Shown piece after piece: positions 5,429 through 62,532 of a DNA stretch of 64,000 nt. This stretch comes from Terriglobia bacterium (GTDB lineage: Bacteria > Acidobacteriota > Terriglobia > 20CM-2-55-15), in assembly GCA_965198225.1 (NCBI GenBank), contig CBDAOY010000008.1:224001-288000 (forward strand), read 5' to 3'. Both the position numbers and the translations under genes were made by a program. The notes under the pieces were generated by a model. It ran no database searches. It worked only from the letters and a program-made list of their open reading frames with translations, and was not told where the DNA came from. Numbering within the stretch: position 1 is the stretch's first letter; each line of letters starts with the position of its first letter.

Positions 5429-5490
5429 CTTACCGATCTGAAATCTCGAATCTCGATCCTCCAATTTCGATTGCGGAATTCCCGTCGGAT

Positions 5491-9295: not shown

Positions 9296-9328
9296 GTATC
9301 TTCCCCTTGTGTTTGGACTTTCCTGGCG

Positions 9329-10708: not shown

Positions 10709-10789
10709 ACGGTGCTCCTTTTAGCTCTTGAATATGTCTACGCTCGGTTTCTGACCGATCTACAACCGGATCTAAAATGGAGGGCGCGC

Positions 10790-14000: not shown

Positions 14001-14066
14001 GTAGGTGGGCTCTATGAGCGCACGTCGTTTCGGCTCGAAGAATGTGCGGTCATAGACCGCACCTAC
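14001..14066. repeat. Single REP doublet (REPIN-like), same family as 5491-6429
   Basis: GTAGGTGGGCTCTATGAGCGCAC-N20-GTGCGGTCATAGACCGCACCTAC downstream of suyB. Confidence 0.85.
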
Positions 14067-14091
14067 ACTTCCTTTACGTCGCAGCAGCTTT

Positions 14092-20370: not shown

Positions 20371-20445
20371 GGGCAGCTCTATGGAGCCGCTCACCGAAAC
20401 TTGAAATTTTGATTTAGTTTTAGAAACTCAACTCAGGAGCACCGA

Positions 20446-21825: not shown

Positions 21826-21866
21826 GGCCCTTAACGGGAAAGAGAGAATTCAGGAGGAGACCGAAC

Positions 21867-23562: not shown

Positions 23563-23567
23563 GTGGT

Positions 23568-23871
23568 GTAGGGGCGGTCTATGACCGCACGTCGCTGCGG
23601 TTCGAAGAATGTGCGGTCATAGACCGCCCCTACACTTGCCTGGAATAGAATTTCTGCCGAGGCGCGGGACAGTCTTGCTTTCGAGTGTAGGTGCGGTCTA
23701 TGACCGCACGTCGTTGGGGTTCGAAGAATGTGCGGTCATAGACCGCCCCTACACTTGCCTGGAATAGAATTCCTGCCGAGGCGCGGGACAGTCTTGCTTT
23801 CGAGTGTAGGTGCGCTCTATGAGCGCACGTCGTTGCGGTTCGAAGAATGTGCGGTCATAGACCGCCCCAAC
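23568..23871. repeat. Three REP doublets in 119-bp tandem units
   Basis: GTAG starts at 23568, 23687 and 23806; same REP as 5491-6429; linker repeated. Confidence 0.9.
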
Positions 23872-23883
23872 ACCCTATAAACC

Positions 23884-33167: not shown

Positions 33168-33190
33168 ATGTCGTTTCTCCTCGGAGGCCC

Positions 33191-34570: not shown

Positions 34571-34623
34571 CTGTTGGTACCCTCTCCGTACTTGGATCGT
34601 TTGTTTCGATTTAATCGAGTCCG

Positions 34624-38291: not shown

Positions 38292-38298
38292 ATATTAG

Positions 38299-38355
38299 CA
38301 GCCCGTGGCAGAACTCTACAGGGCCGCGTTACGGCCAAACGGGGCCGGATTCTAG
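38299..38355. mobile_element. Truncated left arm of a palindromic element (60956-type), interrupted at its internal CTAG
   Basis: CAGCCCGTGGCAGAA..GCGTTACGGC..GCCGGATTCTAG parallels the left part of 60956-61224. Confidence 0.65.
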
Positions 38356-38622
38356 TGACCTGTAACAATGCTATCGGTACCAGCGTTCGGCGGAACGGCG
38401 TCGGATTTTAGGAGTGACGCCCGAGCCAATGCTGTTTCATTGCGAGGACGTCACGACACCGAAGACGGCGCCGTTGGGCCGAACCCTTCGGGCCGATGGG
38501 GGTTGCGGGCGATCTCTTTGTCGGAAGCCGTCACCGATGAAAGAGCATCGCTTTCCGTCTCCCTCCGCGACCTCGCCCGCAAGACCCATCGGCGATGGTG
38601 CCGATAGCACTGTTACAGGCCA
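38356..38622. mobile_element. MITE-like palindromic element, copy E1 (267 bp)
   Basis: Terminal inverted repeats TGACCTGTAACAATGCTATCGGTACCA / TGGTGCCGATAGCACTGTTACAGGCCA; flanks CTAG and CTTG. Confidence 0.8.
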
Positions 38623-38805
38623 CTTGGGATAGATCAAGCATGCCGGTGACTGCACGACTGACTCTCTCGGCGAAGGTTGGTCGTGCACTGAATCGCGATG
38701 TTTTCGGGGATTCAACTGGCCGGGCAGACAATATCTTTCCCAGAACGCCTTCATGTGCTATCGTTCTGTAACCAAACAACATAGGCATAATAAACAGGGG
38801 GCTCG

Positions 38806-41202
38806 ATGAAGTCGGTTTCCGTTTGGGTTGGAGTGCTTGGCGTGCTGGTTGTGTCCGCCGGAAGTGCCTGGGGGCAAACCCCGAGCACAATGCCGGTTTC
38901 ATCGCAGCAGGCGCTGGTCAACGACTACTGCTCGGGTTGCCACAACGACGCGATTCGTGAAGGTGGGTTTTCATGGGCCACGATCGACCTGGCCGATCCC
39001 GCCCGGAACGCGGAACAAGCCGAAAAGGTGATTCGCAAATTGCGGGCAGGCATGATGCCGCCGGCGGGCGCAACACGACCGGCGGTCGCTGACGCGAAGG
39101 CGCTTGCACTGTCGATTGAAACCGCGATCGATCGATCCGCTTCGGAGTACCCGTTTGCCGGCGCTCCCGAACTCCATCGGCTCAATCGAACAGAATACCG
39201 TAACTCGGTGCGCGAGTTGCTCGACTTGGATGTGGATGTTTCTTCGATGCTTCCGACCGACCAGATGAGCGGCGGCTTCGACAACATCTCCGACGTGCTC
39301 GCTGTGACTCCGGCGCTGGTGCAGGGATACGTCCGGGCGGCAGGCAAGATCAGCCGGCTGGCGATCGGTGACCCTGAAGTGGCCCCGACCATGTCGATGT
39401 ACACCGTGCCGAAGGTCGTCAACCAGCTGCGGCACGTCATGGGCACGCCGCTGGGAACGCGGGGCGGAACCTCCGTAGTCTACAACTTCCCCGCCGACGG
39501 CGATTACACGTTCAAGGTAGCCTTCTACCACGACTTCATCACCGAGCTGTTTGGCGCCAATCTGCCCGAGAACCTCCAGGGCCAGGAACTGGAGATCTCC
39601 CTAGACGGGGCCAGGGTGGCCATCTTCGAACTCGATCCAGAACTCTCCGAACCCGAAGGCACGTTGACGACAGAGTCGGTCCGGATCACGGCGGGCGCGC
39701 ATCGCGTTGCGGCCGCATTCATCTCGAAGTTCGACGGGCCGACCGAGGATGAGTTCCGCCAGGTGGAGCAGTCGATGATTGACGTCACCGGCGCGGTGCC
39801 CGGCCTAGTCGCCCTGCCACACCTGCACACACTGACTATTGCCGGCCCGTTCGTCGTGACAGGAATGTCGGAGACGGCATCCCGTCAGAAGATATTCCGG
39901 TGCAGGCCCGCGTCGGCCGACGCGGAACTGGACTGCGCGAAGAACATCCTGGGGACTCTGGCACGGCAGGCATACCGCCGGCCGATCTCGAACACCGACG
40001 TGGACTACCTGATCAACCACTACGGGGCCGGACGTGAAGAGGGAGACTTCGAGGCCGGGATCCAGATGGGCGTGCAGGCGATCCTCGGGCATCCGGAGTT
40101 TGTCTTCCGATTCGAGAAGACGCCGTCAAACGTCGGGCCAGGGACGAACTACCAGATCAGCGACCTGGAGCTGGCGTCCCGCATGGCGTATTTCCTCTGG
40201 AGCAGCCTGCCCGACGAGGAATTGCTGTCGCTGGCATCGGAGGGAAGGCTCGCCGAGCCCGGGGTGGTGGAACAGCAGGTCCGCCGCATGCTGGTGGATC
40301 CGCGCTCGGCTGCGCTGTCGGACAATTTCGCGTTCCAGTGGTTGCGCCTCCAGACGGTAAAGGAGGCCCAGCCCGAGGCGCTCGTGTTCCCGGAATTCAC
40401 GAGGAACCTCGGCGAGTCGATGACCGAAGAAACGAAGCTGCTCTTCGATAGCATCATGCGCGAAGACCGCAGCGTGATCGACCTGCTGACGGCGGACTAC
40501 ACGTTCGTCGACGAGGTGCTCGCGAAACACTACGGCATCCCGAACGTGCTGGGAAGCCGGTTCAGGCGCGTTGGGGTGACCGACCAGAACCGTTTCGGTC
40601 TGCTTGGACACGGAAGCGTCCTGACGTTGACGTCGCTGGCGAACAGAACGTCTCCCGTCCAGCGGGGCAAGTACGTCATGGAGGTCCTGATCGGATCGCC
40701 CCCGCCTGCGCCGCCCCCGGTCGTTCCCCCCTTGAAGGAGGCGGTGGATAACGAGGTCGTCCTCTCTGTCAGAGAGCGGATGATCCGGCACCGGGAAAAC
40801 CCCGCCTGCTCGGCATGTCACCAGATGATGGATCCGATCGGTCTGACTCTGGAGAACTTCGACGCGATCGGCCGGTGGCGTGCGAACGACAGCGGGTCTC
40901 GCATCGACCCGTCGGCCGAGATGTACGACGGGACGCCGCTCGACGGACCCGCCAGCCTGCGCGAGGCAGTCCTCGCTCGCTCCGAAGCGTTCATCGGAAC
41001 CTTTACGGAGCATCTTCTTTCATATGGTCTGGGCCGCGTGCTCAGTTATCGGGACATGCCCACGGTCCGGTCGATCGCCCGCGAGGCCGCGCAGAACGAC
41101 AAACGTTTTTCGTCGTTCATCCTCGGCGTCGTGAAGAGCGTGCCGTTCCGCTTGAGGCTCGCCGACGAAGAATACACGGCAGATCAGTTGAGAAACCGGT
41201 AA
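38806..41202 (+). CDS. PSD/DUF1592-family di-heme protein (cassette 4)
   Basis: CSGCH..GMMPP; CSACH; collinear, most divergent copy. Confidence 0.9.
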   Translation: MKSVSVWVGVLGVLVVSAGSAWGQTPSTMPVSSQQALVNDYCSGCHNDAIREGGFSWATIDLADPARNAEQAEKVIRKLRAGMMPPAGATRPAVADAKALALSIETAIDRSASEYPFAGAPELHRLNRTEYRNSVRELLDLDVDVSSMLPTDQMSGGFDNISDVLAVTPALVQGYVRAAGKISRLAIGDPEVAPTMSMYTVPKVVNQLRHVMGTPLGTRGGTSVVYNFPADGDYTFKVAFYHDFITELFGANLPENLQGQELEISLDGARVAIFELDPELSEPEGTLTTESVRITAGAHRVAAAFISKFDGPTEDEFRQVEQSMIDVTGAVPGLVALPHLHTLTIAGPFVVTGMSETASRQKIFRCRPASADAELDCAKNILGTLARQAYRRPISNTDVDYLINHYGAGREEGDFEAGIQMGVQAILGHPEFVFRFEKTPSNVGPGTNYQISDLELASRMAYFLWSSLPDEELLSLASEGRLAEPGVVEQQVRRMLVDPRSAALSDNFAFQWLRLQTVKEAQPEALVFPEFTRNLGESMTEETKLLFDSIMREDRSVIDLLTADYTFVDEVLAKHYGIPNVLGSRFRRVGVTDQNRFGLLGHGSVLTLTSLANRTSPVQRGKYVMEVLIGSPPPAPPPVVPPLKEAVDNEVVLSVRERMIRHRENPACSACHQMMDPIGLTLENFDAIGRWRANDSGSRIDPSAEMYDGTPLDGPASLREAVLARSEAFIGTFTEHLLSYGLGRVLSYRDMPTVRSIAREAAQNDKRFSSFILGVVKSVPFRLRLADEEYTADQLRNR

Positions 41203-41217
41203 GGAGAGGAAACATCC

Positions 41218-42588
41218 ATGTTCATCACGAAGAAACACCTATCCCGACGCACCTTCCTGACGGGTGTGGGCGCGACCGTTGCGCTGCCGTTTCTCGAGTC
41301 GATGGTGCCTGCGCAGACGCCACAACGTCTGACCGCAGCCAACCCTCGAACTCGCCTGGCGTGCCTGGAAATGGTACACGGCAGCGCCGGCAGTACGCAG
41401 TACGGGATCGAGCACAACTACTGGATGCCGCCGACCGAAGGCGCCGATTTCGAGTTCGGATACATCCTGGAGCCGCTCGAGAGCTTCCGGGACTACATCA
41501 CGCTGGTCACCCAGACCGACCAGCGCCCGGCCGAAGCGTGGACGGCGGAGGAAGAAGGGGCCGACCACTTCCGTTCCAGCGCCGTGTTCCTGACGGCCGC
41601 TCACCCGAAGCAGACCGAGGGGTCCGATGTCCGGGCAGGGACGTCGATCGATCAGATCTATGCGAACCGGTTCGGTCAGGACACGCCGCTCCCCTCGATT
41701 CAGCTGTGCATCGAGAACGTGGATGCGACGGGTAACTGCGGGTACCACTACAGCTGTGTTTACATGAACTCGATCAGCTGGTCGTCGCCCGAGACCCCGC
41801 TGCCGATGACCATCGACCCGCGAATGGCGTTCGAAGATCTGTTCGGCGCCGGCGGCTCACCCGAGGCGCGGGCGGCCCGGCGACGCGCCAACCAGAGCAT
41901 CCTCGATGGCGTTACGCTCGAAGTGGCGCGGCTCCGGAAAGATCTGGGGCGGCGCGATCAGAACAGGCTGAACGACTACCTGGAGAGCGTCCGCGAGATC
42001 GAGCGGCGCATCGAAAAGATCGAGCAATACAACGCCAGCGGTGCGGAGCGGGAGCTGCCGTCGGCGCCGATCGGCGTGCCCGATTCCTGGGAAGAGCACG
42101 TCAAGATCATGTTCGACTTGCAGGTCCTCGCGTTCTCTGCGGAAGTGACGCGCGTTTCGTCGCACAAGCTCAGCCGGGACGTGAGCAATCGCGTGTTCGA
42201 AGCGAGCGGGAACAAGACGCCGTTCCATTCGGCATCGCACCATGGGTCGACGCCGAAGGGGATCGAGGATTACACGAAGATCAACCGCTACCACATCGAC
42301 CTGTTCGGGTATTTCCTCGACAAGCTCCGGAACACTCCAGATGGAGACGGGAACCTCCTGGATCATTCCATGGTCCTGTACGGCAGCCCGATGGGCGATT
42401 CCAACGTGCACGCGCACAAGCGAGTGCCGATGTTGCTGGTCGGCCATGCCAATGGTCAGCTCAAAGGGAATTGGCATGTCCGCGCACCGGATGAGACCCC
42501 GACCGCCAACGTGCTGCTCGCCTTGCTGCACAAGCTGGGGATCGAACAGGACATCATCGGCGACAGTACGGGAGTCTTGTCGATATAG
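41218..42588 (+). CDS. DUF1552 (HXXSHH) protein (cassette 4)
   Basis: SRRTFL, CGYHYSCVY, FHSASHHG. Confidence 0.9.
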   Translation: MFITKKHLSRRTFLTGVGATVALPFLESMVPAQTPQRLTAANPRTRLACLEMVHGSAGSTQYGIEHNYWMPPTEGADFEFGYILEPLESFRDYITLVTQTDQRPAEAWTAEEEGADHFRSSAVFLTAAHPKQTEGSDVRAGTSIDQIYANRFGQDTPLPSIQLCIENVDATGNCGYHYSCVYMNSISWSSPETPLPMTIDPRMAFEDLFGAGGSPEARAARRRANQSILDGVTLEVARLRKDLGRRDQNRLNDYLESVREIERRIEKIEQYNASGAERELPSAPIGVPDSWEEHVKIMFDLQVLAFSAEVTRVSSHKLSRDVSNRVFEASGNKTPFHSASHHGSTPKGIEDYTKINRYHIDLFGYFLDKLRNTPDGDGNLLDHSMVLYGSPMGDSNVHAHKRVPMLLVGHANGQLKGNWHVRAPDETPTANVLLALLHKLGIEQDIIGDSTGVLSI

Positions 42589-42639
42589 AACCGACCGTTG
42601 AAACAGGTTTAAGAGAAGCGTTAGTTAAAGGAAGAGACA

Positions 42640-44205
42640 ATGAAAACACTCGGACTAAGCTTACTTGCTCTACTCGTCGCGACCACGGCGATCGTTGCCG
42701 CGGCCAACGAGACCGAACTCGTCGAAGCCGCGATGCGCGGGGACACGGCTGAGGTACGCTCGTTGCTGGACGCCGGGGCCGACGTCAATGCGGTTTACGG
42801 TGACGGCAGCACGGCACTGCATTGGGCTGCCGGCAACGGTGATCTGGAACTGAGCCGCCTGCTGCTCGATGCTGGCGCCAGGGTCGATGCCGTCACACGG
42901 ATCGGATCGATGACCCCGCTGTTCATGGCGGCCAGGAGCGGGGAGGCTGGCGTGATCGAGACACTGCTGGAGGCAGGTGCGAGCGCGGACGAGGCCAACG
43001 ACAACGGGACGACGGTCTTGATGAGTGCGGCGGCTTCCGGAAACGTCGAAGCGGTTCGGGCGCTCATCGAAGCCGGTGCGGATGTCAATGCCACCGAGGA
43101 GACCAACGGTCAGACTGCGTTGATGTTTGCGGCCACCCTCAACCGTGCGGAAGCGATCCAGGCTCTGATCTCCAACGGCGCGGACACGGGCGTAATGACG
43201 AAGGTTTCCAAGCTACCGAACCGTGGCCGAGGCGGGCGGCGGTCCGGTCCGGCCGTCGTCGGCGGGATGACGGCATTGCACTTCGCGTGCCGGGACGGAC
43301 AGATGGATGCCGTCCGCGAACTCGTGGCCGGCGGAGCCGACATCAACGCAGTCACGGAGTCGAAACAGACCCCTCCGATCACGGAAGCCATCCTCAATGC
43401 CAATCTCGACATCGCCAAGTTCCTGCTCGGCAACGGCGCCGATGTGAACATTCCGAACGGCGACGGTCTGCTGCCGCTTTTTGCCACCTTGGACATCCAG
43501 TGGAGGCAAAACACCTGGTATCCGCAGCCGAACGTGTCGGAAGAGAGGACCAGTTATCTGGATCTCATGGAGGAAATCCTGGCCCATGGTGCCGACGTGA
43601 ATGCCCGGTTGGGAAAGAGGCTGTGGTACCGGACTTTTCGCTACAGCGGGGGCTGGATCGATCCGGCCGGCTCAACTGCCCTCTGGCGTGCAGCAGAGGC
43701 GAACGATGTGGACGCGATGCGTCTGCTCGCCTCCCACGGCGCCAATCCGACGATTCCGACTGCCCAGGGCACGACTCCCCTGATGGTCGCAGCAGGTTAC
43801 GGCTTCACGTGGCAGGCGACCAACATCAAGCCGGATTCGCGAATCGACGCCCTCAGGCACCTGGTTGAAGAGCTCGGCGCCGACGTCAATGGTAAGGACC
43901 TGCAGGATTACACGGCCTTGCACGGAGCTGCCTACGTGGGCGACGACGACGCCATCATGTACCTGGTGGCCAGAGGCGCCGACGTCGGCGCGCGGGCGAG
44001 TGCCCGCCTCGGGTCCCGGGCCCCGACCCCTGTCGAGCCTGGTACCGGAGACACGGTAACCGACTTTGCGAACGGTCCCCACGAGAAGTCCCTGTTGTTC
44101 CCGGACACGGTCCGGCTGCTGGAGTATCTCGGCTCGGAAAACTCCCACGACTGCCGGTCGACGGGGTGCGTGAACAACACGAAGGAGGATCGGCCACGTC
44201 GTTAG
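42640..44205 (+). CDS. Secreted ankyrin-repeat protein (cassette 4)
   Basis: Signal peptide, ankyrin repeats, VTDFANGP tail. Confidence 0.92.
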   Translation: MKTLGLSLLALLVATTAIVAAANETELVEAAMRGDTAEVRSLLDAGADVNAVYGDGSTALHWAAGNGDLELSRLLLDAGARVDAVTRIGSMTPLFMAARSGEAGVIETLLEAGASADEANDNGTTVLMSAAASGNVEAVRALIEAGADVNATEETNGQTALMFAATLNRAEAIQALISNGADTGVMTKVSKLPNRGRGGRRSGPAVVGGMTALHFACRDGQMDAVRELVAGGADINAVTESKQTPPITEAILNANLDIAKFLLGNGADVNIPNGDGLLPLFATLDIQWRQNTWYPQPNVSEERTSYLDLMEEILAHGADVNARLGKRLWYRTFRYSGGWIDPAGSTALWRAAEANDVDAMRLLASHGANPTIPTAQGTTPLMVAAGYGFTWQATNIKPDSRIDALRHLVEELGADVNGKDLQDYTALHGAAYVGDDDAIMYLVARGADVGARASARLGSRAPTPVEPGTGDTVTDFANGPHEKSLLFPDTVRLLEYLGSENSHDCRSTGCVNNTKEDRPRR

Positions 44206-44225
44206 GAACGGCATGAGATGAGCGG

Positions 44226-44255
44226 AAAGGGCCCGGGAACATTCCCGGGCTTTTT
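44226..44255 (+). terminator. Intrinsic terminator of cassette 4
   Basis: GCCCGGGAA-CA-TTCCCGGGC-TTTTT. Confidence 0.65.
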
Positions 44256-44272
44256 CATGGGGGAATCCAGGA

Positions 44273-45217
44273 ATGGAACAATCAGAGAATCCATGCCCGG
44301 CTGCCGAACCCGGAAGCATGAACCGCCGCCAGCTCCTCCAGGCCCTGTCTGTCCTGGCTGCTGCCGCCGCACTGCCCTTCAGGGCCGAGGCGGCGCCGGC
44401 CTTCAAACCGATCTGGCTGAACCAGTACACCTACGTTGCGCCCGACATGGCCGCCACGGCCGACTGGTACGTCGAGGTCTTCGGGATGCAGCGGGGCATG
44501 GCCACGGCGCGGGAGACTCACCTGTGGTTTGGCGACGTTCAGGGCGACACGCTGATGATCGTGCGGCAGGCGCAGGCAGGCGACACGGCGCCGGCCCTCA
44601 CGAGGTTCGGTTTCACGATCAACTACTGGGACCGGGATTTCGTGCGAGCCGAACTCGAGCGGCGCGGTCTCGATCCACAGCCCGACACCGACAAGGGATT
44701 CTGGTTCCGGGATTTGGAAGGCAACGAGATCGGTGTCTTCGCGCCGGACTGGATGGAGAGAACCGACGCGTCGACGTCGCGGCCCTCCGTGTTGCAGGCG
44801 CTCAGCGCGAACCACATTGTCGTCGTCAGCTCAGACTATAAGAAGCTTGCCGACTGGTACCATGACCTGATCGCGCTCAACCAGACGACCGACTCCGGAA
44901 GAGACGTCGTCCAATGGTTCGGAGATACGGCCTGGCTTCCGACACAGGTGCGCGAGGGCGCGCAGACTTCCGCGGCTCTCGGTACATTCGACCACTGCGC
45001 TCTGACGGTTGCCGACTACGATACGCGAACGGTCGTGCCGGAGATGAAACGCCATGGGATTATCTCGCCGGATCGAGAGATAGAGGACGACGACACGGGC
45101 ATATATGGTGTCGACCTGAATGACTTCAAGATTCAGGTCTGTGCCTGGAACGAGGCGCCCAACCAGGACCGTCGGCGATTGCAACGGTCCCGGCAGCGAG
45201 GCCGTCCCGTTAGATAA
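44273..45217 (+). CDS. Tat-exported VOC/glyoxalase-fold protein
   Basis: NRRQLLQ signal; two VOC-like halves (WYVEVFGM..FWFRDLEGNEI; NHIV..FDHCAL..DLNDFKIQV). Confidence 0.75.
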   Translation: MEQSENPCPAAEPGSMNRRQLLQALSVLAAAAALPFRAEAAPAFKPIWLNQYTYVAPDMAATADWYVEVFGMQRGMATARETHLWFGDVQGDTLMIVRQAQAGDTAPALTRFGFTINYWDRDFVRAELERRGLDPQPDTDKGFWFRDLEGNEIGVFAPDWMERTDASTSRPSVLQALSANHIVVVSSDYKKLADWYHDLIALNQTTDSGRDVVQWFGDTAWLPTQVREGAQTSAALGTFDHCALTVADYDTRTVVPEMKRHGIISPDREIEDDDTGIYGVDLNDFKIQVCAWNEAPNQDRRRLQRSRQRGRPVR

Positions 45218-45234
45218 CGAAAGGAGAGGCAGAA

Positions 45235-46146
45235 ATGGATAGAGTCGGAAAGCTTTTTCGGGAACTGGATGGGAAGAGAATCAGCCGGCGGCAGCTCCTG
45301 CAGGGGATGGCAGCGGCGGCGACCGCTGCGGCCCTGCCTGTGCGGTCCGAGGCTGCGGCGTTCAAGGGGACCTGGGTCAACCAGTACACCTACGTCGCGC
45401 CCGATCTCAACAAGACCGTGGACTGGTACGTCGAGGTGTTCGGGATGCAGAGGGGCCACACCGACGCGAAGCGGGTTCACCTCTGGTATGGCGACACCGG
45501 AGGGGACACGCTGATGATCGTCCGGCAGGCCGAAGCCGGCGAGAAAGCTCCTCGTATCGATAAGTTCGGGTTTACGATCGCCGACTGGGATCGTACGGCC
45601 GTCGAGGCGGAGTTGCGACGTCTCGGGCGACGGCCCCAATCCGACACGGAGAAAGGGTTCTGGTTCGACGACCTGGACGGGAACGAGATCGGGCTGTTTG
45701 CCGCGGACTACGTCGAAAGACCGTCGGCATCTTCGGCGGCCCCGATGCTGTGGAAGGCGGTAAGCGCCAACCACATCGTCATCCTGACCGAAGATTACGA
45801 GGCGATGGCCGTCTGGTACAAGGACCTCCTCGACCTCAGACAGACGCGTAATTCGGGCCGGGATACCTATCTTTGGCTGAGCGATTCCGTCTGGATTCCG
45901 ACCATGGTGCGCGAGGATGGCATGACCTCTGCGGCCCTGGGAACGCTCGATCACGTTGCCTATTCGATCGAGACGTTTGAAAAGGAGTCCGTGGAAGCCG
46001 AACTGCAGCGCCGCAACCTGCAACCCGTACTCGACGCCGAGTACAGTTTCAACTGTGTCGACATCAACGGCTTCAAGACCCAGGTGTGCGACAAGGAACT
46101 CGTGGTCTTCGCCGAGCAGCGACCGCCTCGGGGCGGTGAGCTGTAA
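45235..46146 (+). CDS. Tat-exported VOC/glyoxalase-fold protein, tandem paralog
   Basis: SRRQLLQ signal; long blocks identical to the upstream gene (NQYTYVAPD, GDTLMIVRQA, SANHIV). Confidence 0.75.
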   Translation: MDRVGKLFRELDGKRISRRQLLQGMAAAATAAALPVRSEAAAFKGTWVNQYTYVAPDLNKTVDWYVEVFGMQRGHTDAKRVHLWYGDTGGDTLMIVRQAEAGEKAPRIDKFGFTIADWDRTAVEAELRRLGRRPQSDTEKGFWFDDLDGNEIGLFAADYVERPSASSAAPMLWKAVSANHIVILTEDYEAMAVWYKDLLDLRQTRNSGRDTYLWLSDSVWIPTMVREDGMTSAALGTLDHVAYSIETFEKESVEAELQRRNLQPVLDAEYSFNCVDINGFKTQVCDKELVVFAEQRPPRGGEL

Positions 46147-46170
46147 CCTCTTAGTGTCGAAATCTGCAAG

Positions 46171-46572
46171 CTAAAGGTCGATCAGCATCTTCAGATCCCG
46201 CAGGAACTGCTGTTTGTCCTTCGGGGAAATCAAGATGTAGTCGCTCGCGCCGTAGTCGATACGCAGCCGGTCCGTCGACAGGGCCGGGGCAGACGTCATC
46301 TCCCTGCTTTCCTTGACTGAACGGACGAGTTTGAGCGGGATCTTCCAACGGAAAAGGCCGAACCGAACGTAGAGGGTGTCCGGCGTCAGGCGGTAAGAGG
46401 TCGCTAAAAAAAACCACAGCGGAACGACGAAACCGGCCAACGCGACAATCAGGGCCGGAGCCGGCCAGCCTTCCTCCAGGAGCCGAAGCACGACCCGCAC
46501 GCCGATGAACGCCGAAGCGCCCACGGCGAGGAACACCCACCAGTCCATCTTCGATCTGTACGTCCTATCCAT
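46171..46572 (-). CDS. Membrane protein with bacterial PH domain
   Basis: YRSKMDWW, two TM segments, SAPALSTDRLRIDYG, ILISPKDK. Confidence 0.7.
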   Translation of the reverse strand: MDRTYRSKMDWWVFLAVGASAFIGVRVVLRLLEEGWPAPALIVALAGFVVPLWFFLATSYRLTPDTLYVRFGLFRWKIPLKLVRSVKESREMTSAPALSTDRLRIDYGASDYILISPKDKQQFLRDLKMLIDL

Positions 46573-47429
46573 GCCCTGCGCTGTCCTTCGAGGAAGGTCT
46601 CAATATCAAGGACGTAACAGCAGCAGGAAAACTTTCGAGGAATCGGAAGCCCGGCGATTTTTTATTCGTTCCTCAGAACCTGGATCGGGTCCACCTTCAG
46701 AGCCTTCCGTGTCGGAAGGTACCCGGACACCATCGAGATTGCCGCCAGCAAGCCGGTGAAGGCGAGGAACGGACCTGTTTCCAATCCGACGGTCCCAAAC
46801 AGCGCGCTTTCCATCAAGCGACCGAGTGCGAACGCCAGCGCAATGCCTAGAGCAAGCCCTACGGCCGTCAACCGCCTCGCACGGGCCAGCATCAGTCCCA
46901 GGATGTTGCCCGAAGAGGCCCCCAGGGCTGTGCGGATTCCGATCTCATGGACCCGCTGATTCACCAAGTATGTCATCAGTCCGTAGATACCCATCGATGA
47001 GATCAGCAGGGCCAGGGCCCCGAGAACGCTCATGATCGACCCGGCGTACTGAAGGCCGATCGTCGTGTCCTGGATCGCACGTTTCATCGTCCGGACTTCG
47101 TAGATCGGCTGTGACGGGTCGACGCGGAGGATGGCTTCGCGCACGGGCTGGGCGTGCAAGGTGGTATCGTCCGCCGTCCGCAATCCGATGGCGATATCCA
47201 GCCGCGGTGCCTGCGCATAAGGGAGGTAGGCGAGGCGATCAGCAGGACCAGGCCCGCTCCGAACTGCATAACCCCGAGGAATGCCGGCGCTCCGGGATCG
47301 ACCAGCCCTTCGGAGAGCGATCGGACTCCTACGTCCCACCCCCTGTTGTCGTCGGGATACTGCTCCTGTAACCGCTCCCCGATGACCCGCATCTCGGAAG
47401 CCGCGTCCTCGAGTTGAGGTATCTGGCAC

Positions 47430-48748
47430 CAGTAGTGTCCGACAGATTTAGGACCTCCCGGTCCTAAAGTTAGAACTGACGCGATGTAGCGCGCTTGTCA
47501 AGGTGTTAACGATTTGATTTCTGTGCGGCCTTCGCGGCAGCCTTTCCAGAGGTTTCTGGGAGGCACCGATGCACGCTGGCAAGCTGGTCTTCGCACAAGT
47601 CATGGAGTTCGCGCCGTGGTATACGTTCCGTCGTCTGGTGACCAAGTACCGCGGCAATTTCAACGTCCGCACATTCAGTTGCCTGGACCAGTTCCTATGC
47701 ATGGCCTTCGCTCAGCTGACCTATCGGGAGAGCCTGCGCGACATTCAAGCCTGCTTGCGAGCCCAACCCGCCAAGCTCTACCACCTGGGGTTGCACGGGA
47801 AGGTCAGCCGCAGTGCATTGGCCGATGCCAACGAGTCTCGCGACTGGCGCATCTACGGAGAGTTCGCTCAGGCGCTGATCCGCATCGCACGCCGCTTGTA
47901 TGCCCACGAGCCGCTCGGGATCGACCTGGACGAAACCGTCTACGCGCTCGACTCCACGATGATCAGTCTGTGCTTGTCGCTGTTCCCTTGGGCGCACTTT
48001 CGAAAGACCGAAGCCGCGGTGAAGCTTCATACGCTGCTCGACCTGCGTGGCGGTATCCCCAGCTTCATCCACATCTCCGAAGGCAGGCTGCACGACGTCA
48101 ACGTTCTCGACCTGCTCATCGCCGAAGCCGGTGCTTTCTACGTGATGGACCGCGGCTATCTCGACTTCGATCGCCTCTACACCTTCAATCAAGCCGGGAG
48201 CTTCTTCGTCACCCGTGCTCGATCCGACTTCGCGTTCAAGCGCATCTACTCCCAACCCGTCGACCGACACACGGGCCTCATCTGCGATCAGACTATCGAA
48301 CTGACCGTATTTCGCTCCCGCCGCGGCTACCCCGAACGGTTGCGTCGCATTCGTTATCGCGATCCCGAGGGTCGGCGACTGGTTTTCTTGACCAATCACA
48401 TGACGCTCCCAGCCCGGACCATCTGCGAGTTGTATCGCCTGCGCTGGCAGGTGGAGCTGTTCTTCAAATGGATCAAACAGCACCTGCGCATCAAGCGTTT
48501 CTTCGGCACTTCCGAGAACGCCGTCAAAACTCAGGTCTGGGTCGCCGTGAGCGTTTACGTGCTGGTGGCTATCGTGCGTAAAGAACTGAATTTGCCTTTG
48601 TCGTTGCACTCAATGTTACAGATCTTGAGTGTCACACCATTTGAGAATGTGCCTCTTTTTCAGCTGCTTACCGAATCCGGGCTCATCTCAAATCGACACT
48701 CTAACGCTAACCAATTGAATCTATTCTGAAACGTGTCGGACACTACTG
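47430..48748 (+). mobile_element. IS4-family insertion sequence, 1319 bp
   Basis: Perfect 15-bp TIR CAGTAGTGTCCGACA/TGTCGGACACTACTG; 9-bp target duplication ATCTGGCAC (47421-47429, 48749-48757). Confidence 0.95.
47569..48729 (+). CDS. IS4-family DDE transposase (DUF4372-type N-terminus)
   Basis: ALDST, VMDRGY, YRLRWQVELFFKWIKQ (YREK signature). Confidence 0.95.
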   Translation: MHAGKLVFAQVMEFAPWYTFRRLVTKYRGNFNVRTFSCLDQFLCMAFAQLTYRESLRDIQACLRAQPAKLYHLGLHGKVSRSALADANESRDWRIYGEFAQALIRIARRLYAHEPLGIDLDETVYALDSTMISLCLSLFPWAHFRKTEAAVKLHTLLDLRGGIPSFIHISEGRLHDVNVLDLLIAEAGAFYVMDRGYLDFDRLYTFNQAGSFFVTRARSDFAFKRIYSQPVDRHTGLICDQTIELTVFRSRRGYPERLRRIRYRDPEGRRLVFLTNHMTLPARTICELYRLRWQVELFFKWIKQHLRIKRFFGTSENAVKTQVWVAVSVYVLVAIVRKELNLPLSLHSMLQILSVTPFENVPLFQLLTESGLISNRHSNANQLNLF

Positions 48749-49506
48749 ATCTGGCACCTCTGTTCTCACGCACATCGGGTGGGAAGGCGAGGGGAGACCA
48801 TACCTGTGCGCCGACGGGGAAGTCGAATCCCTCCGGCGCGACGCCGACGACGGTGTATGCCTCGCCGTCGAGCGTGATCGCCTGGCCCAGGACGGAAGGA
48901 TCGGCGCCAAAGCGTCTGCTCCAGAGACCGTGGCCCAGGATCACGCGGTACCGGTTGGCGACCTGCTCTTCTTCGGGCAGGAAGGTTCGGCCCATGACCG
49001 GTTCGACGCCTAGGATTTCGAAGAACCCGGGAGATGCGAACATTCCCTGGATGCGTTCGGGTTCGTCGCGGCCTTCAAGATTGACGTCCCAGTACTCGTA
49101 AGCGGCGAGCGTTTCGTAAACGTCGCTTTGTTCCCGCCAGTCGAGGTAATTGGCCGGTGCAACTGAGAAACCTTCGAACTCGAACAGGCTGTCGGGAGAA
49201 CTCTCAGCGAGCATGACCAAGCGGTCGACGTCCTCGATCGGAAACGGGCGGAGAACGATGGCATCGATCACGCTGAAGATGGCCCCGTTGGCACCCAGGC
49301 CGAAGGCCAGCATGAGGCCGACGCTGGCGCTCAGCAACGGCTGCCGGGCGATCATCCGAAAGGAGAAATGGATATCTTGTTTGAAATTGTGCATTTAGGG
49401 CCTGATCCTCCAGTCCGGGAATCATACGGCTCCCGGCAGGCAAAGGTTCCGCCGAAGACTGCTTTGATTGTAATGACGGAGGTTTTCGAGCGTCTTTAAC
49501 AGCTAG

Positions 49507-49767
49507 TGGCCTGTAACAGAGAGAGTGATAGCGGCGTTGCGAGCGCAACGGTACCGGATTCTAGGAGCGCCGCCCGAGGAAATGCTGCTTCATTGCGAGA
49601 AGGCGCGACGACGAAGACGGTGCTGTTCCGCCGCAACCCGAAGGGACGATGGGCCTTGCCAGCCGCCTAGATGAGTCAGGAAACAGCGATGTTTTCCATC
49701 GGCGACGAGTCGGGAGAGGACCCGCAAGGCCCATCGGCGACGCTGTCACTATCTCTGTTACAGGCCA
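49507..49767. mobile_element. MITE-like palindromic element, copy E2 (261 bp)
   Basis: TIR TGGCCTGTAACAGAGAGAGTGATAGCG / CGCTGTCACTATCTCTGTTACAGGCCA; flanks CTAG and CTGG; internal similarity to E1. Confidence 0.8.
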
Positions 49768-49860
49768 CTGGGGCGGAACAAATCCCTGCGAGATGGCGTA
49801 CTTCCACAGCAACCCGGCAACAACTCTCACACGTTCCGGTGGATAGGAGAGGGAAGGATC

Positions 49861-52332
49861 ATGGATTCATGGTTTCGAGATCTTAAGTTCGGCGCCCGGA
49901 TTCTGTGGAAGGACCGTGGCTTCGCGACGACAGCCATTCTGACGCTGGCAATCTGCATCGGCGCCAACGCCGCAGTATTCACGATCGTGAACTCGGTGCT
50001 CTTGAGTCCGCTGCCCGTTCCCGAATCGGACCGGATCATGCTGGTGTCGAACCAGTACCCGAACGCCGGGGTGGGCGACAGCCCGAACAGCGGCGTGCCG
50101 GACTACTACGACCGGCTCCGGGACATCGATGTGTTCGGCGAGCAGGCCCTGTTCGGCGCCCAGGGGAGCACGCTGGACATCGACGGCACACCCCGTCGCG
50201 TTCGAGGTATGCGAGCGACCGCGTCGCTGTTTCGTCTCCTCGGGGTTGGGCCGGTGATCGGCCGAACGTTCGGTGAAGAAGACGGTGAGGTGGGTAACGA
50301 CCAGAAAATCATTCTCAGCCACGGACTGTGGCAGGAGCTGTTCGCCGGATCCTCCTCCGCGCTGGAGAGCGAAGTCCGGCTAAGCGGCCGTCCGTACACG
50401 GTCGTAGGTGTGATGCCGCCGGATTTTCTGTTTGTGGATCCCGAGGTTCGCTTCTGGACCCCGCTGGCTTTCACCGATGAGGACCGCTCCGATGATAATC
50501 GTCATAGCAACAACTGGCGCAACGTGGGCCGCCTGAAACCCGGCGCGACCATGGAGCAGGCGCAGGCTCAGGTCGACGCCTTGAACGCGGCGAACATGGA
50601 GCGGTTTCCATTCTTCCGGGAACCTCTCGAAAACGCCGGGTTCTACACGCGCGTTGAGCCGCTCCAGGAGATGCTCGTCCGCGATGTGCGATCGACGCTG
50701 TACCTGCTCTGGGGCGGGGCGTTCTTCGTCCTGCTGATCGGTGCGGTCAACATCGCCAACCTTGCGCTGGCCCGCTCGGGCCTCCGCCTGAAGGAACTGG
50801 CCACGCGTCTCGCGTTGGGAGCGGCACGCCCTCAGGTGGCGCGCCAACTGATTACGGAAAGCGTGATCGTAACGCTGTTGGGAGGCGTTGCGGGACTGGC
50901 GTTCGGATCATGGATACTGGGAGCCTTCGGCACCATCGGGCTCGACCAGCTTCCGCGTGCCGGCGAGATCCAGATGAACGCAACGGTCGTCGGCTTCACG
51001 CTTGCGATCGCGATCGTTGCGGGGATCTTGATCGGACTCGTCCCCCTCGGCTACGTGTTTCGATCGAACCTCAACCACGTGCTGCACGAGGAAAGCCGCA
51101 GCGGCTCCACGGGGCGTGGCGCACGGGCGATCCGGCGCGGCCTGGTCGTGGCCCAGGTCGGCTTCGCTTTCATCCTCCTCATCGGGGCGGGCCTTTTGCT
51201 GGCGAGCTTCCGCGAACTTCTGGAGGTGGATCCGGGTTTCCGACCCGAAGGTGTTCTGACGGCATCGGTCAGCCCCCCGTCGGTGCGGTATGAGGGAGGC
51301 GATGAGCTCCGCGCGTTCATGGACCGGGCTCTCGAGGGGATTCGCGCGATTCCCGGCGTCGAGGCGGCGGGCTCGACGACCAACGTGCCGTTCGGCGGCA
51401 ACTCGAGCGACAGCGTCATCCTGGCCGAGGGTTACGTCATGCAGCCCGGGGAATCTCTGATCTCCCCCCGGCGGCTGACCGTCACAACGGGCTACTTCGA
51501 GGCCATGGGCGTCGGGCTGGTCCGGGGACGGTTCTTCGGAGCTCAAGACACCGAGGACAGTCCCGGCGCCGTGATCGTCGACGAACGACTGGCGAACAAG
51601 TTCTGGGCGGGTCAGGATCCGATCGGCCGGCGCATGTACATGCCCAGCGACCCGAACGACCTGCTCAAGACCGACGAGAACACCGAGTGGCTCCATGTCG
51701 TCGGCGTCGTGAACGAAGTCCGGTTCGACGACCTGGCAGGGAACCGCAACCAGGCCGGCGCCTACTACTTTTCCTACATGCAGAGCCCGACGCGGGGCAT
51801 CACGTTTGCCGTCCGGACGGCGATGAACCCCGAGTCGCTGACCGAGACGCTGCGCGCCCGGATCGCCGCGGTCTACCCGCAGTTGCCGGTGTTCAACGTC
51901 CGGACGATGTCGGAGCGGATGGAACTGTCTCTGATGCCCCGCCGAGCTTCGATGCTTCTGGCGATAGGGTTCGGGACCATCGCGCTACTTCTGTCGGCAA
52001 TCGGGATCTACGGAGTCCTGGCCTACCTGGTCACCCAGCGCACGAAGGAGATTGGCATCCGCATCGCGCTGGGCGGCACGGCGCGACGGATCTTCTCGAT
52101 GGTGTTGCGCGAAGGAGCCCTGCTGGTTGGCGGCGGCCTCGTCCTGGGGCTTGGCGGGATCTTCGCGCTGCGACAGGCCGTCGGTAACCTTGTCTACGGC
52201 GTCGGGCCGACAGACCCGCTCGTGATCAGCGCTGTCGTTGCCACTCTCGCGGTGGTGGCGGTCGCGGCCTGTGCGCTGCCGGCTCGCCGGGCAACCCTCG
52301 TGGACCCGATCATCACCTTGAACGAACAGTAG
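49861..52332 (+). CDS. ADOP-family duplicated ABC permease (2x MacB-PCD + FtsX)
   Basis: DLKFGARILWK, LAICIGANAAVFT, ELATRLALGA, EIGIRIALGG, VDPIITLNEQ. Confidence 0.92.
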   Translation: MDSWFRDLKFGARILWKDRGFATTAILTLAICIGANAAVFTIVNSVLLSPLPVPESDRIMLVSNQYPNAGVGDSPNSGVPDYYDRLRDIDVFGEQALFGAQGSTLDIDGTPRRVRGMRATASLFRLLGVGPVIGRTFGEEDGEVGNDQKIILSHGLWQELFAGSSSALESEVRLSGRPYTVVGVMPPDFLFVDPEVRFWTPLAFTDEDRSDDNRHSNNWRNVGRLKPGATMEQAQAQVDALNAANMERFPFFREPLENAGFYTRVEPLQEMLVRDVRSTLYLLWGGAFFVLLIGAVNIANLALARSGLRLKELATRLALGAARPQVARQLITESVIVTLLGGVAGLAFGSWILGAFGTIGLDQLPRAGEIQMNATVVGFTLAIAIVAGILIGLVPLGYVFRSNLNHVLHEESRSGSTGRGARAIRRGLVVAQVGFAFILLIGAGLLLASFRELLEVDPGFRPEGVLTASVSPPSVRYEGGDELRAFMDRALEGIRAIPGVEAAGSTTNVPFGGNSSDSVILAEGYVMQPGESLISPRRLTVTTGYFEAMGVGLVRGRFFGAQDTEDSPGAVIVDERLANKFWAGQDPIGRRMYMPSDPNDLLKTDENTEWLHVVGVVNEVRFDDLAGNRNQAGAYYFSYMQSPTRGITFAVRTAMNPESLTETLRARIAAVYPQLPVFNVRTMSERMELSLMPRRASMLLAIGFGTIALLLSAIGIYGVLAYLVTQRTKEIGIRIALGGTARRIFSMVLREGALLVGGGLVLGLGGIFALRQAVGNLVYGVGPTDPLVISAVVATLAVVAVAACALPARRATLVDPIITLNEQ

Positions 52333-60933: not shown

Positions 60934-60955
60934 GCGTCCTTCCTCTCGCATCCAG

Positions 60956-61224
60956 CAGCCCGTGGCAGAAGTCTGATGGCTCGCGTTACGGCGGCGTCGC
61001 GCCAGATGCTAGGCGCCGCGCCGACCGATCTGCGGGTCCCGAGAAATGTCGCGTGGCAACAACGCCCGCGTGTGACGCCGCCGTAACCCTCCGGGCGCAC
61101 GGGGGTTGCGGTCGGATACTTTGTTGCTCGTCGTCATGATGAAACCGCATCAGTTCCTCCTCGCGCCTCGTCTCCGCCTCGCAAGACCCGTGCGCGCGAA
61201 CCATCAGACTTCTGCCACTGGCTG
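60956..61224. mobile_element. MITE-like palindromic element, copy E3 (269 bp)
   Basis: TIR CAGCCCGTGGCAGAAGTCTGATGG / CCATCAGACTTCTGCCACTGGCTG; flanks CCAG and CTAG. Confidence 0.8.
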
Positions 61225-62532
61225 CTAGGCGATAGTCACAGCCACGCGGTGCATGACGTTGTTCAGGTAGCCCCGCGGATTCCAGCCGGGCACGATCGGC
61301 GGTTGGGTCCTACCGTTCGAGTCAGTGGCTCGCGCCCACACTTCGTAATAGCCCCGAACGGGAAAACCGATCTCTGTTTCCCACCGTTGCCACGCATACG
61401 GGTTCACCGGTTCCGCCAGTCGGGTGGCGTGCCAGGCCTGTCCGAAGTCGTAACTCACGTCGACACGCGATACCGTTTGGTCGCCCGCCCATGCCTTGCC
61501 CCGGACAGTTACTGTCTGGCCCAGCGGCGCCGTGGTTTCGGTCTCGGGTCGGGTGATCAAAGATTTGACCGGCAAGGAATGGATGATCTCCATTTCCTCC
61601 TGCGGAACATCTGCTCCCGCCTGGACCGGGTACTTGTTGATCCGGTAGGAGTAGCCCGTCATCCCGCGACCGTCGTGCTCTTGGTCGCGAATCTGGATTC
61701 GATTGATCCATTTCGCTGACGCCGAGCCCGGCCATCCGGGTATCACCATGCGGACCGGGAATCCATGGATTGCCGGAACCGGCTGTCCGTTCATTTCCCA
61801 CGCGAGCAGGTTGTAGGGGCTCATCGCTTTCGAAATCGGAACGCCGCGGGACAGGGCGACCAGCTCCGGGTTCCGGCTCAGGTGGACGTCGTCGCAGTGA
61901 TTCGCGGTGTAGACGGCCGTCGGCTTCACGCCCGCAGCAGCGAGCACGTCCGCCATGCTGACCCCGGTCCACCGCGAGCACGCGATCGCGCCGACGGTCC
62001 ACTGCATCCCGCTCGGGTGTGGATCGTAACCGGCCCGCCCGTTTCCGGTGCACTCGAGTTGAAGATTCCAGCTGCGGGTCGGAAAATTCCGCTTGAGGTC
62101 GTCGAGCGAAAGCTCCAGCGGCCGCTCGACCTCGCCGTCGACCACCAGCCTGTAGCCCGTGCTGTCCATCCGCTCGGCCATCGAGCCCATGTTTCCGTTA
62201 TTCCGTACGTAGTGGTATTTGATCGGCGTGACGTCGTCGTCCAGTTGATGCGCCCGGGCTTCAGCCCCGACAGGGCGCTGGTTCAGGACCACAAGGTCTT
62301 TGCCTTGGAGCAGTGGGTGAGTGCCCTCTTGTGCGAGCGCGACGGGAACCAACCCGGAGGGCATGTTCCGCGCGAAAGGGATGTGAGCGCCGACGGCCAC
62401 CATCATTGCCGTCAACCCGGCTCCATTCAGGAAGCCGCGTCGAGTGATCGGATCCGCCTTCCGACCCCAGATCAAAGAGTCTGCCCGCTCCGGGTCCCGG
62501 TATAGCTCGAAGATGTCTGTCTCCCGCTTCAT
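61225..62532 (-). CDS. Tat-exported sulfite dehydrogenase (SorA/SorT-like)
   Basis: TRRGFL; HYVRNNG; LECTGNGR; HGFPVR..PGWPGSASAKW; WNPRGYLNN. Confidence 0.88.
   Translation of the reverse strand: MKRETDIFELYRDPERADSLIWGRKADPITRRGFLNGAGLTAMMVAVGAHIPFARNMPSGLVPVALAQEGTHPLLQGKDLVVLNQRPVGAEARAHQLDDDVTPIKYHYVRNNGNMGSMAERMDSTGYRLVVDGEVERPLELSLDDLKRNFPTRSWNLQLECTGNGRAGYDPHPSGMQWTVGAIACSRWTGVSMADVLAAAGVKPTAVYTANHCDDVHLSRNPELVALSRGVPISKAMSPYNLLAWEMNGQPVPAIHGFPVRMVIPGWPGSASAKWINRIQIRDQEHDGRGMTGYSYRINKYPVQAGADVPQEEMEIIHSLPVKSLITRPETETTAPLGQTVTVRGKAWAGDQTVSRVDVSYDFGQAWHATRLAEPVNPYAWQRWETEIGFPVRGYYEVWARATDSNGRTQPPIVPGWNPRGYLNNVMHRVAVTIA

Follow-up and report, generated by a model that had tools for sequence, protein, structure and literature searches.

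The window, by which we mean the whole 64,000-nt stretch of Terriglobia DNA that was analysed, contains the element copies E1, E2, and E3, whose parts are listed in Table 1. E1 and E2 are representatives of two subfamilies of one non-coding MITE of ~270 nt. E1 occupies an internal CTAG at which a C-type fragment is broken, a nested insertion, and its right flank is CTTG. The fold is common to all subfamilies and consists of a closing stem, arm 1, a 9-nt mini-hairpin, and arm 2, with DNA folding energies of -84.6 kcal/mol for E1 (z -8.3) and -74.1 kcal/mol for E2 (z -6.5). E2 aligns with E1 in the forward direction throughout, excepting the interior of arm 2, which matches that of E1 in reverse complement. 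An Rfam search of the window gave 0 matches at the gathering score, and a mir-42 match was rejected as chance (16.8 bits, with 70 needed; E 0.72). In a repeat search of the whole window, E1 and E2 were absent from the top families listed.

Table 1. Location of the MITE copies and their component hairpins in the window.
Feature	Positions	Strand	Basis or details
Left-end fragment of C-type element, terminus CAGCCCGTGGCAG...	38298..38352	+	Matches the C subfamily (18 copies) at its left end
E1, A-type MITE, arm 2 forward (common)	38355..38623	+	40 copies, 94-98% identity
E1 arm 1, long hairpin with internal CTAG	38389..38481	+	Fold
E1 mini-hairpin CCC-TTC-GGG, between arms	38484..38492	+	
E1 arm 2	38494..38591	+	Base stems 38494-38506 and 38579-38591; forward interior 38507-38578
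E2, B-type MITE, same overall orientation as E1	49506..49768	+	20 B-group copies
E2 mini-hairpin CCC-GAA-GGG	49637..49645	+	
E2 arm 2	49647..49736	+	Base stems 49647-49659 and 49724-49736; flipped interior 49660-49723
E3, D-type copy, same core, different termini, forward arm 2	60955..61225	+	nhmmer match 60980-61224

About 173 loci of the MITE are dispersed over the 6.4-Mb genome, 124 of them near full length, and the elements are short (263-277 nt), non-coding, and multi-copy. The insertion site is the TA in CTAG, and the TA is duplicated. Among A-type copies, CTAG was found on the left in 31/40, on the right in 27/40, and on both sides in 21/40; two-sided CTAG flanks were also present in 8/20 B-type, 11/15 F-type, and 8/31 C/D-type copies, and most copies without CTAG on both sides differ by one base. 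Relative to flanking genes, 29 copies were co-directional and 23 anti-directional, and 39/124 were unclear; no bias was evident from this crude gene calling by GC3. One-armed deletion forms also occur in the family, and its make-up is modular.

A partner IS of 1122 bp is present in the same genome in three copies that are 100% identical. This autonomous IS, which the terminal inverted repeats of the MITE match, has the terminal TAGTGRCCTGTAAC in common with the MITE, and its ends are TAGTGGCCTGTAAC / TAGTGACCTGTAACAG, as in the A, B, and F types. The sequence common to the IS and the MITE is limited to about 14 terminal bases. The IS-encoded protein matches the NCBIfam IS630 family transposase (257 bits, cut-off 100) and Pfam DDE_3. 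The MITE is moved by an IS630-family transposase, which is of the DDE cut-and-paste type; the near-identity of copies (94-98%) and the nested insertion are indirect signs of its mobility. The original prediction had taken the two elements as a hint of hairpin-mediated replication, and this is not supported, the partner being an ordinary cut-and-paste IS630. No IS with C/D-type termini was found in the genome. A second IS630-like gene (44% identical) is present, and its termini are of yet another type.

The sequences quoted in the original prediction for E1 and E2 are present at the positions given there, and they had been taken as a reverse-complementary match of 27 nt. The interiors of arm 2 were compared after trimming the palindromic base stems, with 5000 dinucleotide shuffles as the background. 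In local alignment, the reverse complement scored 17 (z 5.3), a value reached by 5/5000 shuffles, and the forward strand scored 10 (z 1.6), reached by 542/5000; in global alignment, the corresponding scores were 6 (18/5000) and -9 (1851/5000). Because the reverse score stands out with the palindromic stems removed, the match exceeds the palindromy of the arm, and forward alignment does not score equally well. The matched stretch takes in the asymmetric flanks of the hairpin (CGTCRCCGATG ... CATCGCT..TTTCC), beyond the palindrome itself. The reverse match held, and its extent proved larger than described: the whole arm-2 interior (38507-38578 in E1, 49660-49723 in E2) appears reversed in E2. 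The prediction spoke of inverted arms in the plural, and in this respect it was not borne out, as arm 1 keeps the forward orientation in all subfamilies and is never flipped.

The same relation was observed between subfamilies. Among 30 pairs of subfamily consensus sequences, the reverse score exceeded the forward score in 29, with 1 tie. The A consensus matched the reversed B consensus with a z of 4.2, a score reached by 0/2000 shuffles; for the other types the counts were 4 (G), 20 (F), 47 (D), and 153 (C) of 2000. When the B copies were compared with 49 forward arms, the top reverse score was above the top forward score in 20/20. The purine share of the arm-2 interior also separates the two groups, being 31-45% in 95/95 forward-type copies and 51-62% in 20/20 E2-type copies, which supports a flip that spans the interior as a whole.

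These data have to be weighed against a replacement of the module, by which the B interior would derive from a cassette with no relation, or a very remote one, to the common arm, and its reverse likeness from composition plus a shared small hairpin motif. Such replacements do occur in this family, since the arm-2 interiors of the H, cl2, cl7, and cl8 types are clearly replaced and score near background both ways. The reverse-complement identity of the B interior to any known forward arm is modest (57-67%, compared with about 48-50% between unrelated arms), and no close forward parent of the B arm was found. A profile built from 21 forward arms gave weak matches with a top score of 11 bits: 6/20 B arms on the minus strand (E 2e-4 to 0.04), 1/20 on the plus strand (E 0.38), and none in 13/20, E2 included. 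Reversed scores were also slightly better in 5/6 copies of the unrelated H-type arms, and composition could account for some of the excess of reverse over forward scores. However, dinucleotide shuffles keep composition and so control for this share, and the reverse match beats them for both the A consensus and the E1-E2 pair; the likeness includes the hairpin flanks and not the palindrome alone, and the forward-arm profile matches 0/9 H-type arms. Replacement of the B interior is therefore considered unlikely, though it deserves more weight than the other alternatives discussed below.

The orientation of arm 2 is fixed by subfamily. It was flipped in 20/20 E2-type copies and forward in 95/95 copies of the A, C, D, F, and G types, with no exception in 115 copies. 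E3 has arm 2 in the E1 orientation, as had been predicted. In other species of Acidobacteriota, among the 33 copies in the matches listed, 32 were forward, 1 was unrelated, and none was flipped. Similarly, 12 more arms extracted by pattern from loci of relatives were forward when compared with the forward arms of this genome. The B-type arm was found in 0/33 genomes within the family and in 0/59 other (related) genomes, one 22-nt chance match aside. The exact pattern of the flipped arrangement had 0 matches in 185,579 species genomes, although this pattern is narrow and the genome itself was possibly excluded from the set. A 17-mer of the B arm had 13 matches in metagenome contigs, none of them inside a MITE and none matched by the family profile.

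These counts bear directly on the flip-flop proposed in the original prediction. As an active switch, it would have arm 2 changing orientation repeatedly at each locus, driven by an invertase, by replication primed from the hairpin, or by template switching at high frequency. In favour of this, an inverted repeat encloses the arm, a trait of invertible segments, and the B interior is unusually variable. Nevertheless, orientation follows the subfamily in every copy of this genome, the copies listed from other species are never flipped, and the partner IS encodes a transposase of the DDE cut-and-paste kind. The fragmented contigs of four public runs also contained no strand-changing joint at E2, a weak test given that contigs are blind to rare variants. 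Taken together, an active switch is very improbable.

It is equally hard to credit that arm 2 is a small mobile element of its own that was inserted either way round into a larger one. The modular make-up, the one-armed deletion forms, and one partial match containing arm 2 only would fit such a history, and nested insertions do occur, E1 within a C-type copy being an example. But arm 2 lies at one constant junction in all subfamilies and genomes, among the matches listed, it has no target duplication, and the solo-like fragment is just 1 among 173 loci.

The flipped interior is bounded by a 13-nt inverted repeat, CGATGGGnnTTGC ... GCAAnnCCCATCG, which forms the base stems of arm 2 and is present in all types. 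In the forward type, the base stem carries a mismatch of GG opposite GA in the 94 tabulated copies wherever it is readable (left side in 84, right side in 94). In the main B group, TC or CC faces GG, and the B outlier cl13 pairs TC perfectly with GA. The left side of the B stem (TC) complements the right side of the forward type, while the right side is GG and not CC, which departs from the prediction of a simple reciprocal inversion. At most, this pattern suggests that the left base stem in B may have been copied from the right one.

Our preferred explanation, which we regard as probable, is that a single old flip took place in the ancestor of the B subfamily and was then spread by transposition, with no flip-flop switch. 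E1 and E2 belong to a modular superfamily of Acidobacteriota MITEs that is mobilised by IS630-family transposases and has the TA of CTAG as its target. In the copy from which the E2 (B) subfamily descends, the arm-2 interior of roughly 64-72 nt would have been reverse-complemented once between the 13-nt base repeats. As to mechanism, a template switch during replication is likely; otherwise the two repeat arms may have recombined, and another copy may have acted as donor. The hint of template switching in the original prediction agrees with this, as one or other of these events would be the most economical origin of the flip. The flipped master copy may then have reached at least 20 loci by ordinary cut-and-paste transposition.

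The arms also differ in conservation after the flip. The identity of the flipped interior among E2-type copies is 77.5%, compared with 92-99% for the other segments, so that its variability is about five times theirs; forward arms show the same level of conservation as the other parts of their elements. It had been argued that strand-symmetric tolerance of the arm favours a function at the DNA level. The high variability of the flipped interior argues against such tolerance and looks like lost constraint, which the flip may have relaxed. Stem mismatches on the written strand were G-T in 97 cases and A-C in 33, which hints weakly at folding of one particular strand. It is possible, although we hold it as tentative, that arm 2 acts in a strand-specific way, through an RNA or a single DNA strand, that this keeps it conserved across genera in all forward subfamilies, and that the flip in B is a natural knock-out of this function. 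If so, the flipped copies having reached at least 20 sites, the conserved core would not be needed for mobility and would have another role. The spread of the flipped copies in any case suggests that IS630-driven mobility does not depend on the inverted part of the core, and the shift in rate after the flip hints at an orientation-dependent role of the conserved arm.

The mini-hairpin is a separate matter. The original prediction read its form in E2, CCCGAAGGG, as the reverse complement of that in E1, CCCTTCGGG, and this is literally true. However, it is a separate 9-nt hairpin whose 3-nt loop is fixed per subfamily and uncoupled from arm 2, and in the C subfamily a GAA loop goes together with an arm 2 that is forward. 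The matches listed from other genomes include at least 10 different loops. The idea of a GNA triloop was rejected, as TTT, AAA, TCT, and TAT loops occur in other genomes.

A formal parallel to the arrangement is found in parvoviruses. The terminal hairpins of parvoviruses such as AAV are branched, and their inner part exists in two reverse-complementary forms, flip and flop, which lie at the ends of a linear genome, arise in each round of replication, and are present in roughly equal amounts. The MITE likewise has a branched hairpin with an inner part in two reverse-complementary forms. Unlike that of AAV, its arm is internal and chromosomal, a DDE transposase moves it, and its orientation is fixed by subfamily. 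In annotation, arms that match in reverse between MITE copies are not necessarily the sign of an invertible switch.

Bacterial MITEs of the IS630 type provide a second comparison. RUP of Streptococcus pneumoniae is a MITE mobilised by an IS630-family transposase. Like the IS630 MITEs, the E1/E2 family is small and non-coding, has termini matching an IS630 and a TA target in CTAG, is present in many copies, and folds back on itself. It differs in having a conserved multi-arm core across subfamilies with unrelated termini, and in sharing just about 14 terminal bases with its IS. MITEEc1_IS630 is named as another bacterial MITE of this type in PMC11602168, the searched passages of which mention neither the present MITE nor inversions; its supplementary tables might list the MITE. 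No description of the family was among the papers listed in a literature search on MITEs, Acidobacteria, and IS630.

The flip itself resembles the inversions attributed to template switching. In the passages available, switching between short inverted repeats is described as inverting the spacer and homogenising the arms (PMC8604942), and hairpins of rRNA and miRNA are documented to undergo inversion of their loops (PMC8794818). Similarly, in the E2 type a segment flanked by short inverted repeats would have given way to its reverse complement, and the left base stem of B may have been copied from the right. The spacer of the MITE (64-72 nt) is longer than in the cases given in those passages, namely 2-5 nt in yeast coding sequences and about 4 nt in rRNA loops, and, unlike these, the event in the MITE is old and the interior no longer an exact reverse complement. 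According to the part of PMC12928735 consulted, non-coding chloroplast DNA has inversions of 5-50 bp flanked by inverted repeats of 11-24 bp that form stem-loops (Kim and Lee 2005). The MITE arm is comparable to these in size range and architecture; as described there, the chloroplast inversions recur at orthologous loci, whereas the flip in the MITE would be one event multiplied by transposition, with no recurrence seen. Beside these systems, the E1/E2 family offers a clean multi-copy case of a large (about 70 nt) inversion of a hairpin interior, bounded by inverted repeats, in a bacterial mobile element, where the inversion appears to have been frozen and then amplified through transposition.

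The A-type copy E1 and the B-type copy E2 aligned for the most part in the forward direction, except for a stretch in the second half. There, arm 2 is bounded in both copies by a 13-nt inverted repeat, CGATGGGnnTTGC ... GCAAnnCCCATCG. The original prediction, whose quoted strings were all found in place, had matched the inner arm of E1 to the reverse complement of E2, and this was borne out. When the interiors were compared in both orientations after trimming the palindromic 13-nt bases, local alignment scored 17 reversed (z 5.3; reached by 5 of 5000 shuffles) and 10 forward (z 1.6; 542 of 5000), while global alignment scored 6 reversed (18 of 5000) and -9 forward (1851 of 5000). Among 30 pairs of subfamily consensuses the reversed score was higher in 29 and tied in 1, and the B-group copies scored higher reversed in 20/20 against 5 forward consensuses and in 20/20 against 49 forward arms. 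The score of A against reversed B (z 4.2) was reached by 0 of 2000 shuffles; for G, F, D, and C the shuffles reaching the score were 4, 20, 47, and 153 of 2000. A profile of 21 forward arms matched the minus strand in 6 of the 20 B arms (E 2e-4 to 0.04) and the plus strand in one (E 0.38), with no match in 13, E2 included; it matched 0 of 9 H-like arms and 3 of 200 shuffled arms, the latter at 2.1 bits or less.

A simply palindromic arm would align as well forward as reversed. The forward scores were lower, and the composition is not palindromic: the tracts on either side of the central hairpin are pyrimidine-rich in forward arms (31-45% purine, 95 copies) and purine-rich in B arms (51-62%, 20 copies), a switch that a palindrome cannot produce and that reverse complementation does. 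The reversed B interior is only 57-67% identical to any forward arm. The unrelated H arms, too, gained slightly when reversed (5 of 6 copies); this stems from composition, for which the shuffles serve as a control. Judged by these alignments, the reverse-complemented arm 2 of the E2 type can be regarded as real.

Positions of the features (window coordinates unless a contig of the same genome is named)
Feature	Position	Strand
E1, A-type copy	38355-38623	+
Arm 2 of E1	38494-38591	+
GG opposite GA in the arm-2 base stem of E1	38501-38502 opposite 38583-38584	
Remnant of the C-type element (left end) beside E1	38298-38352	
E2, B-type copy	49506-49768	+
Arm 2 of E2	49647-49736	+
Hypervariable arm-2 interior of E2	49660-49723	
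E3, D-type copy	60955-61225	
One-armed deletion forms, examples	C6:691967-692151; C9:1160113-1160258	
Arrays of 32-nt palindromic units	5487-6381; 14040-14071; 23566-23922	
Paralogous gene blocks	7700-13100; 18100-23450; 31570-37000; 39000-42500	
Reading frames downstream of E1 and E2	38806-41202; 49861-52332	+

The element belongs to the IS630-family MITEs. In the genome carrying the window (C8:224001-288000; 6.4 Mb, 60% G+C), blastn with E1 and E2 as queries gave 453 matches that merged into 173 loci, and a profile search also gave 173 loci, of which 124 were at least 200 nt long and fell into 22 clusters at 15% distance. Flanks without CTAG on both sides mostly deviate by single bases. The MITE's terminus, TAGTGRCCTGTAAC, is also that of a 1122-bp insertion sequence present in three 100% identical copies; its 349-aa product matched the NCBIfam IS630 family transposase (E 2.2e-76, 257 bits, cut-off 100) and Pfam DDE_3 (E 1.6e-25). 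A second IS630-like gene of the genome is 44% identical, and its termini are of yet another type. The C and D types, together with E3, have the internal core in common and unrelated termini (CAGCCCGTGGCAG...), again at CTAG sites. E1 itself is inserted at an internal CTAG in arm 1 of a C-type element, of which a 55-nt left end remains; as the right flank of E1 is CTTG and not CTAG, the host copy is truncated beside E1. Among the matches listed from other species, the carriers are Acidobacteriota or Terriglobia MAGs. A literature search, which did not reach the supplementary tables of PMC11602168, did not find this MITE family described.

Main subfamilies of the MITE in the genome
Type	Copies	CTAG on both sides	Mini-hairpin loop	Remark
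A	40	21/40	TTC 36, TTT 4	E1's type; 94-98% identical to E1
B	15 + 5 near relatives	8/20	GAA	E2's type
C	18	8/31 with D	GAA 17, GAC 1	
D	8 + 5	8/31 with C	TCC	
F	15	11/15	TCC 14/15	
H	6		GCA	

Several variant forms were also observed. About 5 copies of about 185 nt lack arm 1, and about 4 copies of about 146 nt consist of the closing stem and arm 1 only. A-type elements at two loci of another genus of the same family (L015 in genome G020, and L051 in a Terriglobia MAG) have an arm 2 identical to that of the A type here, which suggests that the subfamily or its IS has recently spread horizontally. In one Terriglobia MAG and genome G015, arm 2 at six loci (L047, L048, L054, L066, L073, and L027) contains additional inserts of about 35 nt (GCGGCGCCTGCGGCCTCGG...) that form hairpins and resemble a smaller repeat lodged inside the arm.

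Elsewhere in the window, the 32-nt palindromic units (GGATGTGCGCTCATAGAGCGCCCCTACA...), spaced at 91-119 nt, form REP-like clusters that have no relation to the MITE. The paralogous gene blocks are large, 70-80% identical, and both direct and inverted; E1 and E2 lie directly upstream of long reading frames of this kind.

In the predicted single-strand fold, the termini pair into a closing stem (about 30 bp); the other three parts are arm 1, a mini-hairpin of 9 nt, and arm 2. The energy of the fold, -84.6 kcal/mol for E1 (z -8.3) and -74.1 kcal/mol for E2 (z -6.5), was reached by 0 of 200 shuffles in each case. In a consensus fold from 28 elements less than 88% identical, taken from this and other genomes, 50 of the 68 pairs occurred as at least two Watson-Crick types and 23 as at least three, indicating that the fold is maintained through paired changes. 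On the written strand, G-T stem mismatches outnumbered A-C (97 vs. 33), an excess that bears weakly on the strand, as the counts are non-independent and a few pairs dominate. MITE orientation relative to flanking genes had no bias (29 vs. 23) in a crude gene call that left 39 of 124 unclear.

The inversion is confined to arm 2. In all pairings of the 14 subfamily consensuses, arm 1 aligns forward. With D and D2 set aside, the remaining 12 types scored 17-63 forward and at most 6 reversed. The tip of arm 1 is different in D and D2, and pairs that include either of them scored lower (-5 to 27 forward), yet above the reverse every time. The mini-hairpin had also been proposed to be inverted. Its TTC and GAA loops are indeed reverse complements, but the loop is fixed per subfamily and the C type combines GAA with a forward arm 2; among the matches listed from other genomes, the loops include GGA, TAC, AAA, TTT, TCT, TTA, TAT, and more. 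The TTC/GAA contrast is therefore confined to a 3-nt loop on a CCC/GGG stem and is not coupled to arm 2. Flips of 3-nt spacers are described for arms of at least 9 bp in PMC8604942; such a flip may have produced it, and nothing here requires one.

A genome-wide count found both arm-2 orientations, split by subfamily without exception. Arm 2 was flipped in 20/20 B-group copies, forward in 95/95 copies of the A, C, D, F, and G types and single relatives, and unrelated in the nine H-like copies. The element was present in 23 of 60 genomes searched, this one included; 19 of the 23 are among the 33 other genomes of the same family. Copies fetched from relatives had an arm 2 that was either A-like or unrelated (H-like); 12 A-like arms extracted by pattern aligned forward with those of this genome, and in a pattern scan of other genomes 32 of 33 arms among the matches listed were forward and 1 was unrelated. 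Apart from arm 2, B is closest to copies in genome G024 (72% identical), and these have a forward arm 2. With the B arm as query, only this genome gave matches: there were none in the 33 genomes of the family, and none in the 59 other genomes barring one 22-nt chance match. A narrow pattern for the flipped arrangement had 0 matches in the species genome collection, none of the metagenome-contig matches of a 17-mer from the B arm lay in a MITE, and no strand-changing joints at the locus occurred in public-run contigs, which as contigs only prove little. Since orientation follows subfamily and is forward elsewhere, forward is the ancestral state, from which the flip derives in a single lineage. 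No sign was seen of the active flip-flop originally proposed, with which an orientation constant in each subfamily disagrees.

The strand-symmetric tolerance that was to favor a DNA-level function is likewise disfavored. Between B copies the arm-2 interior is 77.5% identical, compared with 92-99% for the other six segments, while in A, F, C, and D it is 96-98.5% identical, as is the rest of the element. Forward subfamilies differ from one another to similar extents in arm 1 and in the arm-2 interior (A vs. F, 80 and 74% identity; A vs. G, 76 and 82%; A vs. C, 77 and 70%); in B, arm distances are uncorrelated with those of the rest of the element (r = 0.08). We take the B variability to mean that, once the flip had occurred, constraint was relaxed or hairpin-driven change continued. 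The B interiors of this genome (contigs C5, C6, C7, C8, and C9) comprise two main variants, and a small stem in them is kept by apparent paired changes (CGCAGA/TCTGCG vs. CGCC.A/TCGGCG in E2).

A template switch between the inverted repeats at the arm-2 base would invert the interior. In forward copies the base stem has a tandem mismatch, GG opposite GA, present in the 94 tabulated copies on each side that the pattern could read (left in 84, right in all 94). It also occurs in most copies of other genomes as a conserved non-Watson-Crick spot. In the B-type copy that diverges most, TC faces GA and pairs with it perfectly, as if the left strand had been copied from the right; in the main B group, TC or CC faces GG. 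This pattern, of two bases only, is compatible with an asymmetric switch and two later substitutions and is a possible footprint. Arm tips have been swapped across the family, making it a mosaic, with arm 1 varying within F (84% identity) and H-like types carrying a different arm 2; the donor may therefore have been another copy in inverted orientation, which would explain the low identity of the reversed B interior.

Neither this type of element nor this type of mutation is new. Template switching between short inverted repeats inverts the spacer and makes the arms alike, as described in PMC8604942 and PMC8794818. Inversions of 5-50 bp between hairpin-forming repeats of 11-24 bp are reported in chloroplast DNA (Kim and Lee, 2005, as cited in PMC12928735).
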